Origin: an uncultured bacterium
Lineage (GTDB): Bacteria; Babelota; Babeliae; Babelales; Babelaceae
Direction of reading: 5' to 3'
Assembly: GCA_963713855.1 (NCBI GenBank)
Contig: OY970209.1
Coordinates: 448,001 to 512,000, forward strand
DNA length: 64,000 nucleotides
The first letter of the stretch is position 1. Each line of letters starts with the position of its first letter. Shown in pieces: positions 1 to 46,495 of the stretch. The position numbers were made by a program.

Positions 1-3000
1 GATAGGTTTTTTTAAGTTCTCGTCGAGTTTCTCGTTGGATATCCCGTTCCCTGATTTCCTCTTTTTGCTTATGGGCTTTTTTATGTTTTGCAATGCCGAG
101 ATCGATCTTAAGAAAGCCTTTCTCGTTAAAGTACATTTTAAGCGGGACGAGAGTTACACCCTTTCGTGAAATGTCGCCGACAAGTCGTGTAAGCTCTTTT
201 TTTCTGACAAGAAGCTTTCGCGTCTTGGTTGTGTCTTCTTTTTTAAAATAGGCGTGCGAATAGGGGCTTATGTGACAATTAAGTAAAAAAAGCTCTCCAT
301 TTCTCACATGCGCAAAGCATCCAGTAAGGTTTACCTGACCAGCTCGCGCCGATTTGACTTCATCGCCTGTTAATACTATTCCAGCCTCGAGTCGATCAAT
401 AATCTCGTAATCGTGGAAGGCTTTTTTATTTTGTGCAACAATCTTCATATAAGCTTAGTTATTTTTATACAGTCCTCATTTAAGTATATACACAATACCC
501 CAGAAGTTGAATAAAACGTAACTAGGTGGGCTACCAAAGAGTGCACCTTTCTTGCAACAGCAAACGCCAATTCGAATGACATAACACTCTTTAAGATAAC
601 TGGGGGAGCTTTAAGTGGCGGTACTTCTCAATTATTACCTTCGGGTTCTGTTAATCCTCGATCAATACTTTTTTTCCCTGCCACAGCAGGTACAGGTTTA
701 TTTCTTGCGACATGCAACAGCGCTTCTAATGATATAACCATATTCGATGTAAATGCAGGAATAGTGAGTAACAGTCGCTCGTACCCGTTACCTCAGAATG
801 CTACCAATCCCCAGTCAATAGCTTCTTCAATAGATGGCAAATATCTTGCCACGGCCAATAGCAACTCGAGCAGCGTTAAGTTCTTTAATGCTACTTCGTT
901 AAGTCAAGCACTATCTCAGTCGTTACCCGCTAATTCGAGCTACTGTGTAGGAATAGCCTTTGCCTCCAATAGCGCTTATGTTCTAACAGCTAATTATGAT
1001 TCAAATGACGTATCGGTTGTACCCCTTCTTCTAGGTGCAGTGTCGGAGGGCGACGCAGGTGATGGTTAAGGCAGTGATCTACCTTTAGGCGTCATCATAG
1101 GAACTTCTGTAGGTGTTCCTTTGGGTCTAGCCGTTTTAGCAGCTGGAACGAGTATAGTTGGTTTATTGGTTTACAATTACTTGCACAGGCATCGCGCAGG
1201 CAGCGTTAATTTTGACGGAAACGAATCCTCACAAGCTCTTTGAATTTTTCAGCATCACTAAACTTTTTTGCGTCCGATTCAAAACCTTTGTGCTAAGAAA
1301 AAGCACCAAAATAGGTTGTTCTCATTGTCAAATTCGTGATTTTAGGGTATTCTATGATTTTAAGTACATCTTTGTAAATTACTTAAAGCAATAGCATGAA
1401 AAAAAATATACTATTCCTTACCTTTCTTTGTTTCACGCCATATTTAATGGGGGCTCTTCCTAAAGCGACTAAAGAACCCGTCTATCTTCTTGAGCTTGAT
1501 TTTCCAGATAGCGTCAGCAAGGATACAGCTGGTATTAGCTCTGTGTATCACGGAATGAGTGTTCCTTTTGAAGATGGTTTGTGTCAATTGCCTGAGCGTA
1601 AGCTTAAAACTTTTTTTTCGCTTATTTTTACTGAGACTATTGAGCGCAAGAGTAATGGCACGTGTCATTTTATTGAACGGATCGCGGATGCGCCGTGTAA
1701 ATGGTATAATCTGACCCTGCACTTGAAGGAATCTGAAGATGCTTCGCATTATGAATACAACTGGCAAGTAGAAGAGCTTTTAAAAAGCCAGATGCCTTTA
1801 CGCATACCAGAGCACGCTGGTATTATCGTCCAGCTTCCCGCCGATTATGTTGCTGGAATTAGTGATGAGGAAGATGTCACGCGAAAAGGGTATTTCGTTT
1901 TACATTTGCCTAAAATATTATTACGCAAAGATCTTACCCAAGAAGAGATGACGGAAAAGCTTGATGAAATAGCGCGTGACAAATTAAAGGTACGAGTTTT
2001 TTGCCCTCTCGTACAATCTGAGACTAAAAAACATGCCCACTGTAGAGTACGCCATATACCACAACGTTGACGCAAAAGATGATTGTTTTAGGTATCGAAA
2101 CTTCTTGTGATGAAACAGCTGCTGCCATCTACCAAACGGGCGAAGGAATCATTTCTAGTTATCTTTTTTCACAAACTGAGCAGCATAAGCGATACGGTGG
2201 TGTTGTACCAGAAATAGCGTCAAGAGCACAGATCGAAAAAATACGAGATATGGTCAATAGCGCGATTAAAGGGGCTCAACTGACCTTAAACGATATCGAT
2301 GTCATTGCTGTAACTCATACTCCTGGACTTCCTGGATCCCTTCTTGTTGGTCTTTCTTTTGCTAAAGCTCTTTCTTACGCTATGAATAAGAAGCTTGTAG
2401 GTGTTAATCACCTGGAGGCACACGCTTTTTCTGCGCTTATTGAGCATGACGTGCCATTTCCCTTTTTATGCTTGACAGCTTCTGGTGGTCATACTGCTCT
2501 TTATAAAATAGAAGCTCTTGGAAAGTACGAAGTGCTTGGCAAAACGACCGATGACGCTGCAGGCGAAGCTTTTGATAAAGTTGCCAAAATGATGCACTAT
2601 CCCTATCCTGGAGGGCCAATTATAGAGCGACTAGCAGAGAAAGTGCAGTTTCAAGATTTTTTTCATTATCCGCGACTTAAAAAGCCCTCGCTTGATTTTA
2701 GTTTTTCAGGTCTTAAAACGGCTGTGTTATACGATCTTGTCAAAAAAACTGCCTACGATTTAAAAACAAAAACGTTTACCGCTCGCGATGATGTTCAGCT
2801 TCATGAGTGTGTTGCAAGTTCGCTTCTTGTATGTATCGCTGATATCTTTGTCGATCGTGTAAAAAGAGCTCTTTTGGCGCATCCCGAAGTTAAGGCTCTT
2901 ACCTTTGTGGGAGGGGTTGCCTGCAATCGTTATATTAAAGATCGTCTGCAAACACTTTCAAAAGCCAATGGGTTACCGTTTTTTACGCCCTCAATGAGCT

Positions 3001-45000: not shown

Positions 45001-46495
45001 CAGCATCCCTCATATTAACGCCTTTAAGGCCGAAACCGGCAAATACGTTTACACCCAAAAAGGTACCCGCTTTGGGAATAGAATTGAGAAAAAAAAGGTT
45101 CGGGGAACGTTTCGAGTATAAAATGCTTGTGAATAATAGCAACCCGAGTGCTAATTTTTTCATCAAAATCCTTGTTATTGAAAAGTTAACAACGATGATA
45201 TGGTATATACCTTACTAATTTAATTTTTTACATGTCAAGGTAAGCGTTATTCATGGGAAAGATTAAGATCTTTATAACAGTTTTAGTTATTGACAAAATA
45301 TTCCGCGCATTGGTATCTTTCAGAAAATTTCTTACACTAGGTGAAGTATGAATAGAGAACTCTTTTTCGCACTGCTTATAAGTTTTAATGTTTCTTGCAG
45401 TGGTATATTTCAAGTAGATCCCAAGCTTGAAAATAAGCAATTCCTTAATACTTTTTTAGGAATTCGAGATTCGTGTACGTGGAAGCAGCACGAAAAATAC
45501 AGTGTGTTTACTCAATATGATAAACAATTTTATTTGTCTTATAAAGATGACTTTATTAAAAAGTATAAATCCTTCTACGCAGTTGCTAAAACTATTAAAC
45601 CCAATAAAATCATCGAGTTAGGCTCTTCAGCTGGTTCAGGTTCTGATGCTTATATGTCCGCCACCAACGCTCACTTTTTAGGAATAGATATATTTAGTAA
45701 ACGTAAATATGATGATGGTACTGAATGGGATTCTTACGATATAGCAGAGAAGCTTTTTAAAGAGCGAAACTTTAAGAATTGGCGCTTACTTAAAGTTAAT
45801 TTAAGAACCCTTAAAAAGTTGCCCGAAAAAGCCGATTTAGTTGTGGTTGATGCTGCTCATGATTTTAACAATGAATATTTAGATCTAAAATTAGCGCTGA
45901 CAGCAGATCCGCGCTACATTTTCGTTGATGATGTGGATGGCGAAGAATGTGGACAGGCCGTAAAGAAATTTATGGACGAAGACCTGAAAGGTAGAATCGA
46001 GTTTGCGATCAAAATTGACTATATAATAGGTGGCTTGGTTATTAAACTTAAAGAACAAAGGCCTAAAAGTGGCAAGAGTAAAGCTCATAAAATCTCAAAA
46101 AAATCTGAGCATAAAAAACGTAAAGCCGATGGAAAGCAGCACAAGAGTCAAAAAGCTTAGTACTAAGAATTTCCTTGATCCATGCTGATAACAAGGCAGC
46201 AGTTAATTGCTTTTTTATAAGAGATGATATCATAAAAAGGCACAAACTGTCTTTTAAAGATAGTGATAGACTAGAGGCCCTTTATAAACGTTCGGGATAT
46301 GCCGGCATGTATCAACTCGATAAAGTGAAATGGTGTATCTTTCTGCCAAAAATCTGCCTCCAAAAAAGAGCGATCCGACTAAGAAGGCTCAAAAAGTCGC
46401 CAAGAAAGAGACTAAAAACTGAGCTAGTAAAGGTTCGAAATTGATACAAGGTTCTTAAAAGGGGAGAATTGGTGGCGGGGGCTGGATTCGAACCA

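Follow-up and report, generated by a model that had tools for sequence, protein, structure and literature searches.

The window analysed here, a stretch of 64,000 nucleotides of contig OY970209.1 from an uncultured member of the Babelaceae, holds two of three clusters that together comprise 21 genes, all of which encode soluble proteins. The first cluster (nine genes, contig 435850-446427) lies upstream of the window, and the second (five genes) and third (seven genes) occupy window positions 26322-32704 and 38233-46160. The genes and their N-termini are present as described in the genome-wide survey's note, from whose gene numbers ours differ. Unless stated otherwise, each cluster gene described below carries a predicted Sec-type leader.

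The second cluster is bounded by two GDP-mannose dehydratases (Gmd), which the survey had listed as exported-type enzymes and which indeed both combine a leader with a PF16363 domain. Paralogue 1 (g442; 26322..27464, minus strand; E 3e-116, the match beginning at residue 65 when the long frame is counted) probably starts at an SD-bearing TTG at 27464, and its open frame extends to 27548. In paralogue 2 (g446; 31526..32704, plus strand; E 5e-151) the leader lies in a 34-codon extension (31526-31627): the last start codon is codon 8, the domain begins at 35 and, close to the residue 35 given in the survey for E. coli Gmd, the match to the human and E. coli enzymes in a PDB search (E 1e-143) begins at residues 33-35. 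The paralogues are 48% identical, and both keep the Rossmann motif and the catalytic Thr/Glu and YxxxK residues of EC 4.2.1.47. Between them, on the minus strand, lie a GT4 (GT-B) glycosyltransferase with one start codon before its domain (27560..28858; PF00534), a GT2 glycosyltransferase with ankyrin repeats (28868..30055; PF12796 and PF00535) and a further GT4 enzyme (30099..31367; PF00534).

On the plus strand, the third cluster encodes a putative GT-A/GNT-I-like glycosyltransferase (38233..39270), an FkbM-type SAM methyltransferase (39429..40337; PF05050, E 1e-6), two GT4 glycosyltransferases (40387..41709 and 41681..43075; both PF00534), the second with an extended N-terminus and a short hydrophobic stretch that fails the leader rule, and a class I SAM methyltransferase-like protein (45348..46160); on the minus strand it encodes another GT4 enzyme (43093..44373; PF00534) and a PAPS-dependent sulfotransferase (44420..45166; PF00685, E 2e-6). 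The gene at 38233, which has a paralogue at contig 1230040, matched neither Pfam nor any PDB sequence, and its assignment is a lead from ESM Atlas neighbours only (0.96; 14-27% of members with GNT-I, GT2 or MGAT2). Likewise, the gene at 45348 had no Pfam match and was assigned by ESM Atlas (0.97; Methyltransf_24 in 55% of members); its single-sequence AlphaFold model (pLDDT 43) was not used.

Elsewhere in the window, a GT2 glycosyltransferase near the second cluster is an exception in having no leader (22518..23453, minus strand; PF00535 from residue 7). A beta-propeller protein with a C-terminal membrane anchor (18811..22113, plus strand; PF10282), predicted to be exported and by composition one of a Ser/Thr-rich family, might be a glycan acceptor; N-glycosylation sequons were not enriched in exported proteins (observed/expected 0.93-0.96). 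Beyond the range covered by the survey's finding lies an NADPH-dependent thioredoxin reductase-thioredoxin (TrxR-Trx) fusion with a predicted N-terminal signal anchor (51880..53331, minus strand; PF07992 and PF00085), and at 63606..64000 (plus strand; PF00482) begins a GspF/PilC gene of a type II secretion system or pilus that continues past the window end.

Other enzymes of the pathway are encoded outside the window. The PMM/PGM at contig 979276-980754 is the sole PF02878 match in the genome and has a leader, which confirms it as the only phosphohexomutase; ManC (contig 1060230-1061372) likewise proved to have the leader ascribed to it, and by motif both enzymes have intact active sites. In the first cluster a UDP-glucose 4,6-dehydratase adjoins a single-chain 3,5-epimerase/4-reductase (contig 444242-446427). 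This two-enzyme route agrees with the proposed eukaryote/giant-virus type, but the epimerase-reductase, aligned from residue 30, scores nearer to the plant enzyme (Arabidopsis 4QQR, E 1e-107) than to that of mimivirus (7JID, E 1e-63). Leader-bearing epimerase-reductases form one clade spanning Babelota and chlamydiae, in which the leader sequences are unrelated and the pattern is the same; none of four viral copies has a leader.

The survey's list of exported sugar enzymes stood, but it was incomplete, as cofactor enzymes have to be added. The NAD kinase (NADK) of this genome has a leader, as do second copies of nucleoside diphosphate kinase (NDK), glucose-6-phosphate dehydrogenase (G6PD) and TrxR, found beside leaderless paralogues (56% identity between the two forms for NDK, 37% for G6PD); leaderless TrxR and Trx are encoded elsewhere in the genome. 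The second Gmd and the leader-bearing G6PD are the more diverged. Relatives also hold such pairs (NDK in G007 and G012, G6PD in G052, Gmd in G044 and G080), and all five copies of the SAM synthetase MetK in 91 genomes have leaders. A SAM-dependent cyclopropane synthase of this genome has a lipobox.

A leader was called where an uncharged hydrophobic stretch of 7-16 residues lay at most 12 residues from an ATG or SD-bearing start and the n-region was non-acidic, so that all calls are rule-based predictions. By this independent rule 19 of the 21 cluster genes have a leader, against 10 of 179 core cytoplasmic proteins defined by Pfam (Fisher p 2e-17), in line with the 18 of 21 against 2 of 93 reported before; judged by eye, the ten core positives reflect either a first beta-strand or a start wrongly placed upstream. 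The long extensions described for the misses were found again, but the misses number two and not three: the UDP-glucose dehydratase, which becomes positive once the threshold is lowered, and the GT4 at 41681, both extended ahead of their domains, while g442 does have a leader. Genome-wide, 560 of 1214 ORFs of at least 100 aa are rule-positive (46%, near the published figure of 44% for Chromulinavorax). Since the clusters still exceed this background (p about 3e-5), we reject leaders arising by chance.

The enzyme leaders fit the signal peptidase I pattern by rule, with a basic n-region, an h-region and small residues at -3/-1 within about 20 residues. Thirty-seven of them could not be told apart from the leaders of 31 secreted or envelope proteins encoded in this genome in seven features (p 0.06-0.92), including the median uncharged run (18 vs 18) and predicted cleavage position (21 vs 21), in two sets that were both drawn largely from rule-positive proteins. 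The value of 31/31 positives among the exported controls is circular, and it was not used as a sensitivity figure.

Fourteen enzymes were checked for SD-bearing or other start codons between leader and domain. No SD-bearing start was found there in PMM, ManC, the Gmd at 31526, the epimerase-reductase, NDK, NADK, G6PD or the GT4 tested, and mis-annotated starts are therefore rejected for most enzymes; weak non-SD internal starts are left in PMM, the UDP-glucose dehydratase and G6PD. Dual translation starts are attractive for PMM and Fcl of relatives, where a Met is kept at the old start in 23/119 PMM homologues and in nine of ten leader-bearing Fcl. As a general mechanism they are not demonstrated, because a Met directly after the leader is common among all exported proteins here (75 of 411, vs 17 in a control stretch).

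The Sec set is present (SecA/Y/F/G, LepB, Lgt). Tat export of folded cofactor enzymes is rejected, since no TatC (PF00902) was found in this 91% complete genome and no twin-arginine motif was seen by eye in the cluster leaders. Type II system genes comprise two secretins, two ATPases, two GspF, GspG and a prepilin peptidase, and no type III components were among the Pfam matches from genome scans, which were not family-by-family searches; the portion of PMC4378268 consulted gives type II as the only secretion system of Babela. Neither DsbB nor a DsbA-like gene was detected (VKOR lay outside the search). Cysteine parity, reportedly described by Dutton et al. 2008 as a test for an oxidising periplasm, showed no bias towards even counts (176/353 exported vs 85/170 core proteins). 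No PMT_2, Wzx, Wzy, WaaL or STT3 match was reported among the 62 polytopic proteins scanned, about 12 of them unannotated, and tblastn with two GT-C and one GtrB of relatives gave no match in this genome. Elsewhere the genome does contain another PF00953 gene and three GT4 genes that lack a leader. No LpxC was found in it, and extracts of PMC4776705 describe Babeliales as lacking LPS.

As stated in the survey, GalU, GalE and the GlmU-like gene have no signals; nor has GlmS. With glmM missing from its conserved slot in the 91% complete genome, the cytoplasm has no phosphohexomutase to serve GlmU or GalU, and the unexplained GlmM step raised earlier is a real problem. Since these four enzymes are leaderless, UDP-glucose would have to cross a membrane to reach an exported pathway; the three TLC and five EamA transporters of the genome are candidates for moving UDP-glucose, Glc-1-P or GlcN(Ac)-1-P. 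PMI, Pgi, MetK and APS kinase were not detected in the genome, and therefore several inputs must come from outside. Fcl/WcaG was not found either: tblastn with the Fcl of three relatives returned only SDR matches of 22-27% identity.

Relatives carry the exported version, the cytoplasmic version or both. Leaders occur on 17/32 Gmd and 13/29 ManC, and on one clear and two possible PMM among 28 GTDB relatives, so the claim that Babelota as a whole export the pathway was too broad and phylum-wide export is rejected. Among 119 PMM homologues, a list biased by the query, 47 have a leader, close to the earlier 45 of 99. Most relatives are leaderless for PMM, NDK (leaders in 4/31), G6PD (0/30, best copies) and UppS (2/29), and NADK occurs in 1/91 genomes; the full enzyme set is therefore special to this genome. 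The leader status of Gmd and ManC agrees in 15 of 21 genomes and differs in six. Their trees imply six state changes for Gmd and four for ManC; as these trees have no outgroup, neither a direction of change nor a donor is proposed (the PMM tree was computed with FastTree). A long TrxR occurs in 18 of 24 relatives; in the 14 copies parsed of 18 (of 23) fetched, 13 have a leader or anchor and four a lipobox, and by eye 2/31 NDK copies of relatives have one. Lipobox proteins cannot face the cytoplasm (Lgt), and these forms suggest a location on the inner membrane's outer face. Among 20 hand-picked gmd loci, PMT_2 GT-C genes occur in four of ten leaderless loci, three of them from one family, vs none of ten leader loci, and polytopic proteins number 22 vs 4; six leaderless loci have no PMT_2 match, and two leader loci hold unannotated proteins with 6-7 TM segments. 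Several leaderless Babelota loci show a GtrB plus GT-C pattern.

Taken together, the leaders on sugar-activating, sugar-transferring and cofactor enzymes suggest that surface sugars are built outside the cytoplasm from host supplies. Leaders, forced starts, intact motifs, isozyme pairs, the relatives' lipoboxes and gene absences can be read from the sequence, and from them we infer export, activity after export, compartment, metabolite access, products and acceptors. We give a probability of roughly 55% to NDP-sugars being made and used in a reducing, host-fed periplasm or envelope without lipid carriers. Sec would export the enzymes to the outer face of the inner membrane, where they would work in a periplasmic or envelope space, a reducing compartment that small host metabolites could enter during growth inside a protist. 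The host would provide hexose phosphates, NTPs, NAD, SAM and PAPS; PMM/PGM, ManC and Gmd would yield GDP-mannose and then GDP-6-deoxy sugars, and the dehydratase and epimerase-reductase UDP-L-rhamnose. Exported NDK would supply GTP, exported NAD kinase and G6PD would supply NADPH, and the anchored TrxR-Trx would keep thiols in the reduced state. On envelope acceptors, glycosyl-, methyl- and sulfotransferases in soluble form would then directly assemble a deoxy-sugar glycan carrying methyl and sulfate groups, with neither lipid carrier nor flippase. In favour of this reading are the cluster leaders and their likeness to those of envelope proteins, the isozyme pairs, the tethered TrxR, NDK and cyclopropane synthase, the MetK leaders of relatives, the lack of Dsb genes and of an even-cysteine bias, the PMT_2 contrast among gmd loci, and the negative results for lipid-carrier families and LpxC. 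The predicted UDP-glucose gap, the GlmM gap, the patchy distribution in relatives, the discordant Gmd and ManC status in six genomes, the exceptions among the hand-picked gmd loci and the presence of a type II system count against it, and no route for NAD, SAM or PAPS through the outer membrane was identified.

Under a less probable but serious alternative, type II secretion or outer-membrane vesicles would carry the soluble enzymes further after Sec export, and they would glycosylate host proteins or the bacterial surface from the lumen of the vacuole or the cytosol of the host; this follows the giant-virus comparison drawn in the survey and ranks second here. The type II genes, the availability of every cofactor in the host and the GT2 fused to ankyrin repeats are in its favour. 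So are the ankyrin proteins of Babela, whose signal peptides and presumed arrival in the amoebal cytoplasm are noted in PMC4378268, the vesicles and cytoplasmic replication bodies of Chromulinavorax (PMC6561590, in extract) and the Chlamydia precedent (PMC4829429, in extract). However, lipoprotein or anchored NDK, TrxR and cyclopropane synthase would remain on bacterial membranes and favour the bacterium's own envelope, even if lipoproteins may be surface-exposed. Moreover, the eukaryotic cytosol already has NDK, NADK, G6PD and MetK-type activities, to which exported copies would add little, being redundant. Against the preferred reading, on the other hand, giant viruses too duplicate host activities in the cytosol (PMC9614988).

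An improbable reading is that the leaders merely tether the enzymes to the membrane or work poorly as signals, so that the enzymes remain in the cytoplasm or face it, either entirely or by way of a second start site. Although this would close the GlmM and GalU gaps, and fits the old-start Met of relatives and the basic stretch (net +3 or more) right after the leader in 16% of enzymes, envelope proteins show that stretch at a similar rate (13%), and basic n-regions with short h-regions fit cleavable signals. The lack of SD-bearing inner starts in the key enzymes, the genome-wide frequency of Met after leaders and the lipobox orthologues also argue against it, and leaderless NDK, G6PD and TrxR already cover the cytoplasm. 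Least credible are leaders as neutral baggage on decaying or non-enzymatically moonlighting copies, which the 46% background, the divergence of the second Gmd and leader-bearing G6PD and the patchy distribution would allow, but against which stand the spared core genes, the retained catalytic motifs, the joint switching of whole pathways in 15 of 21 genomes and the leader pattern that the epimerase-reductase clade keeps across Babelota and chlamydiae despite unrelated leader sequences.

No published account of such an exported NDP-sugar pathway was found in our literature search. Bacterial manB-manC-gmd(-fcl) modules are cytoplasmic and feed undecaprenyl-linked export. Our clusters share their families and, like an O-antigen or capsule locus, have variable transferase content, but they differ from these modules (Wzx/Wzy, ABC, GtrAB with GT-C) in their leaders and in that no flippase, polymerase, ligase, GT-C, fcl or PMI domain was found. 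Inclusion glycogen of Chlamydia trachomatis is similar in that an intracellular bacterium exports sugar enzymes that are normally cytoplasmic and uses host nucleotide sugar beyond its own cytoplasm; in the sections of Gehre et al. 2016 (PMC4829429) drawn on here, the system has type III signals, no Sec peptides, unsecreted GlgC and vacuolar storage glycogen. Here, in contrast, there are Sec leaders, including that on ManC, predicted de novo deoxy-sugar synthesis and cofactor recycling, and glycogen synthase, branching and debranching enzymes were not among the Pfam matches (strict cut-offs, shortened proteins). Giant viruses (mimivirus R141/L780, chlorovirus A118R/A295L), as far as the extracts of PMC9614988 go, share the two-enzyme UDP-rhamnose route, GMD, soluble glycosyl- and methyltransferases without lipid carriers and the use of host NDP-sugars and NADPH. 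Their enzymes, which lack leaders, arise by translation in the cytosol of the host, whereas those described here are predicted to cross a bacterial membrane. The giant proteins of Omnitrophota, also host-dependent bacteria, place phosphoglucomutase and GT4 domains outside the cytoplasm by prediction (10.64898/2026.06.07.730766, in extract), but within huge multi-TM proteins of uncertain topology, unlike the stand-alone enzymes with leaderless controls found here.

Neither ATP nor NADPH, SAM or nucleotide sugars are normally expected in a periplasm, and for this reason bacteria assemble surface glycans on lipid carriers. In this genome a full NDP-sugar pathway with cofactor recycling has predicted export signals, and cytoplasmic paralogues serve as built-in controls. 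A wider view, for which the odds are slightly below even, is that the periplasm is a second cytosol-like compartment with NTP, NADPH, SAM and thiol-reducing enzymes, to which isozymes are targeted by added signal peptides; direct NDP-sugar envelope glycosylation would replace undecaprenyl flip-and-transfer, and some environmental chlamydiae would hold parts of the kit. Should the enzymes continue into the vacuole or host cytosol, this would be a variation on the Chlamydia and giant-virus theme. If our preferred reading of a host-fed periplasm or envelope is true, an LPS-less intracellular bacterium runs envelope biosynthesis on host metabolites, part of the phylum's unusually large predicted secretome would be explained, its metabolic maps would be drawn differently, and the organism would offer a present-day example of enzymes being retargeted where symbiont and host meet.

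The assembly is a single contig of 1,521,901 bases, rated 91% complete, and the named homologues of its proteins are from Candidatus Dependentiae or Babeliales. Gene calling with a hexamer model gave 1265 ORFs, and leaders, i.e., predicted Sec-type signals, were scored by a purpose-written signal-peptide rule. Pfam was searched with 44 ORFs of the window, with the first 450 residues of 450 rule-positive proteins (E 1e-9) and with the first 330 residues of 572 other proteins of at least 130 aa (E 1e-22). Short ORFs and proteins readily recognised as ankyrin or propeller types were not part of these scans; absences bearing on the argument were re-tested one family at a time. 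The genes for RpoB/RpoC, EF-G, EF-Tu, and one ATP synthase subunit appear split over several ORFs (stretches L039, L049, and L034), which suggests assembly frameshifts that possibly lower the completeness estimate.

The genome-wide survey's note had claimed leaders on the enzymes of three glycosylation clusters (contig 435850-446427; window 26322-32704 and 38233-46160), which hold 21 genes, 12 of them within the window. These leaders are real and well above chance: 19 of the 21 genes were rule-positive. The same was true of 10 of 179 proteins in the core cytoplasmic set and, across the genome, of 560 of 1214 ORFs. Leaders are also carried by PMM/PGM (contig 979276-980754), the sole phosphohexomutase of the genome, and by the GMP-only ManC of 380 aa (contig 1060230-1061372). 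GalU and a GlmU-like gene have none, and the start of GalE coincides with its domain start. In the Gmd at window 31526-32704 (+) the last start codon is codon 8 and the domain begins at residue 35, the epimerase-reductase (contig 444242-446427, with its dehydratase) has one ATG only, and no SD-bearing inner start was found in any key enzyme; the leaders must therefore be translated. Catalytic motifs are intact in both Gmds (the other at window 26322-27464, -), PMM, ManC, NDP kinase (NDK), and NAD kinase; the leader-bearing glucose-6-phosphate dehydrogenase (G6PD) is more diverged. For seven leader features, no difference was seen when 37 enzymes were set against 31 envelope proteins; as most members of either set had been drawn from among the rule-positive proteins, the comparison is one of shape and does not estimate sensitivity. 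Methionine directly after the predicted cleavage site was enriched in exported proteins genome-wide (75 of 411; control stretch, 17), which could mean that intact genes had leaders prefixed to them or that the peptidase favors this residue. Export of the leader-bearing enzymes is strongly predicted.

The leader-bearing set extends to NDK (contig 737760-738257), G6PD (contig 1049909-1051294), NAD kinase (contig 1259352-1260308), and two TrxR-Trx fusions (window 51880-53331; contig 1283902-1285395), enzymes that would supply the sugar pathway with GTP, NADPH, and reduced thiols. For NDK, G6PD, and TrxR the genome also encodes a paralogue without leader; NMNAT (contig 147977-148699), unlike NAD kinase, has no leader. 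Further glycosyl-, methyl-, and sulfotransferases outside the clusters and a class IV aminotransferase also carry leaders, and a cyclopropane fatty-acid synthase (contig 826054-827232) has a lipobox. Two more proteins are possible exported isoprenoid steps: UppS (contig 781248-782045), which has a signal anchor but also an internal Met, and a leader-bearing amino-acid-kinase-family protein (contig 1044404-1045282), which by eye resembles isopentenyl phosphate kinase.

Across the phylum, sampled in up to 90 further genomes, leaders are patchily distributed, and export throughout the Babelota, as the survey's note had proposed, was not borne out. Gmd and ManC each occur in 45 of 91 genomes, with a leader on 17 of the 32 relatives' Gmd copies read (of 55 listed), plus three by eye, and on 13 of the 29 ManC copies read (of 45), plus two by eye; their leader status was concordant in 15 of 21 genomes. 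Leaders were present on 10 of 17 relatives' Fcl copies, 4 of 31 NDKs, 2 of 29 UppS, and none of the 30 best G6PD copies, with one leader copy in genome G052. NAD kinase was found in one of 91 genomes and had a leader in 4 of 120 homologues, the copy of the present genome included. Among 49 PMM copies read (of about 150), one clear and two possible leaders occurred in 28 AlgC-type copies and none in 21 of GlmM type; a protein search gave leaders in 47 of 119, and in the tree the genome's copy falls outside the main group of 90 rows, among copies that all have leaders. All five MetK (SAM synthetase) copies in 91 genomes have a leader (L311-L315, from G067, G078, G060, G081, and G046), and three of these genomes have leaderless Gmd and ManC. 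A long TrxR accompanies the short one in 18 of 24 relatives; of 14 copies parsed (18 of 23 fetched), 13 were leader-positive and the last was so by eye, with a lipobox in four.

The epimerase-reductase was found in 15 of 91 genomes. Of 15 copies from relatives, 13 were leader-positive; of the remaining two, one shows a leader by eye and one is truncated at a contig end. At locus level, leaders were present in 9 of 9 from Dependentiae, chlamydiae, and two unlabelled genomes clustering with them, versus 0 of 8 from Patescibacteria, Woesearchaeota, and a single contig labelled Novosphingobium (one partial locus was left unscored) and 0 of 4 viral copies. Leader copies form one branch (SH-like support 96%) that includes both chlamydial copies, and four Dependentiae-type loci surrounding the gene have 17 of 17, 14 of 15, 19 of 21, and 14 of 21 genes leader-positive. 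The Novosphingobium label belongs to a 3.7-kb contig (L146) with leaderless dehydratase and epimerase-reductase, whose branch adjoins the Babelota clade, and may be a binning error. Leader-bearing fusions were seen in L107 (G053:C18, match at 46680; 770 aa, a GlmU-like nucleotidyltransferase followed by PMM/PGM), L229 (G011; Gmd-Fcl in a 743-aa frame), and L136:10022-11845 (a 607-aa epimerase-reductase fusion).

The 20 kb around gmd were compared between genomes whose Gmd is leaderless and genomes whose Gmd bears a leader, 10 of each. Leaderless loci held 22 proteins with at least four TM segments versus 4 in leader loci, and PMT_2 GT-C matches (4 of 10) and GtrB-like GT2 genes (3 of 10) were confined to them. 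This contrast fits the view that cytoplasmic NDP-sugars need a lipid carrier and exported ones do not, and is a lead only: loci were chosen by hand, one family accounts for three of the GT-C loci, no PMT_2 match occurs in six of the leaderless loci, and two leader loci have unannotated proteins with 6-7 TM segments. Candidate glycan acceptors are 48 propeller-like proteins, of which 40 have a leader and 26 are anchored at the C-terminus (Ser 14.7%, Thr 9%), and a collagen-like protein whose gene has a GT2 gene on one side and a transferase-like gene on the other, both with leaders (L007, contig 32164-37495). Leader-bearing CapA-like (PGA_cap) and D-Ala-D-Ala dipeptidase genes lie between the clusters (window 17561-18559 and 36308-36967), and immediately downstream of the first gmd come an arginine repressor and then a polar amino-acid ABC transporter (window 23567-26202).

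Seven relatives at family level have glmM either after cdaA or next to trpS, mostly as trpS-cdaA-cdaR-glmM-DUF502; the names CdaA, CdaR, AlgC-type, and GtrB-like were given by eye. At this conserved slot (L041, contig 687796-690106) trpS, cdaA, and a cdaR-like gene are retained and glmM and DUF502 are lost, and tblastn recovered the leader-bearing PMM only. As GlmS, GlmU, and the Mur proteins belong to the cytoplasm, either some PMM stays inside, a sugar-1-phosphate is imported, or the gene lies in a gap, for which the non-overlapping contig ends leave room. The same applies to the Glc-1-P supply of GalU. Three TLC nucleotide transporters in tandem (L053:8974-13112) and five EamA transporters elsewhere are candidates for NDP-sugar or sugar-phosphate traffic. 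As to passage of NAD, SAM, and PAPS through the outer membrane, a Legionella-type porin gene is present.

MetK, APS kinase, TatC, DsbB, DsbA-like proteins, Pgi, both PMI types, and LpxC were not found in the genome, nor were Fcl and UDP-glucose dehydrogenase by tblastn. As PMI, Pgi, MetK, and APS kinase are missing, mannose-6-P, SAM, and PAPS would be host-supplied. Cysteine parity serves as a test for disulfide-forming exported proteins. It gave no disulfide signature here (even counts in 176 of 353 exported proteins and in 85 of 170 of the core set), and the cysteine contents of the two were 1.18% and 1.24%, respectively. The absence of Dsb oxidation would allow cysteine-rich cytoplasmic folds to survive outside.

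In the main texts searched, few of them from subscription journals, export of nucleotide-sugar enzymes is not reported for Babelota; the gene-by-gene signal-peptide tables that supplement the Babela and Chromulinavorax papers may already mark some of them. Further passage through the type II system, or in vesicles, appears rather unlikely. Type II is described as the only secretion system of Babela, in a paper whose relevant sections note the TrxR expansion and do not comment on location (PMC4378268), and two gspD genes and absent LPS are given for Babeliales (PMC4776705). Chromulinavorax is described with vesicles, 44% signal sequences, and no LPS, and the word "glycosyl" is absent from the main text (PMC6561590). 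Sec is the only inner-membrane export route found in the genome. Given the topology of the lipobox and Lgt, the lipoprotein or anchored forms of NDK, TrxR, and cyclopropane synthase would bring chemistry that depends on ATP, NADPH, and SAM to the outer face of the membranes of the bacterium itself; a periplasm is usually without ATP and NADPH.

The earlier interpretation needs both narrowing, the leaders being patchy in relatives and not common to all Babelota, and widening, to cofactor recycling and an envelope location. Because Sec is the only inner-membrane route found, anchored forms occur, Dsb oxidation is absent, and PMI, Pgi, MetK, and APS kinase are missing, we favor, with a probability of about 0.55, a host-fed, reducing envelope compartment. 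Envelope retention and onward secretion may both be true, for different enzymes. Without Fcl, one option would be GDP-D-rhamnose from a bifunctional Gmd, as described for chlorovirus A118R (PMC9614988). Such an envelope compartment would make GDP-6-deoxy sugars and UDP-rhamnose, the products that we infer, and would assemble a methylated, sulfated glycan in place.
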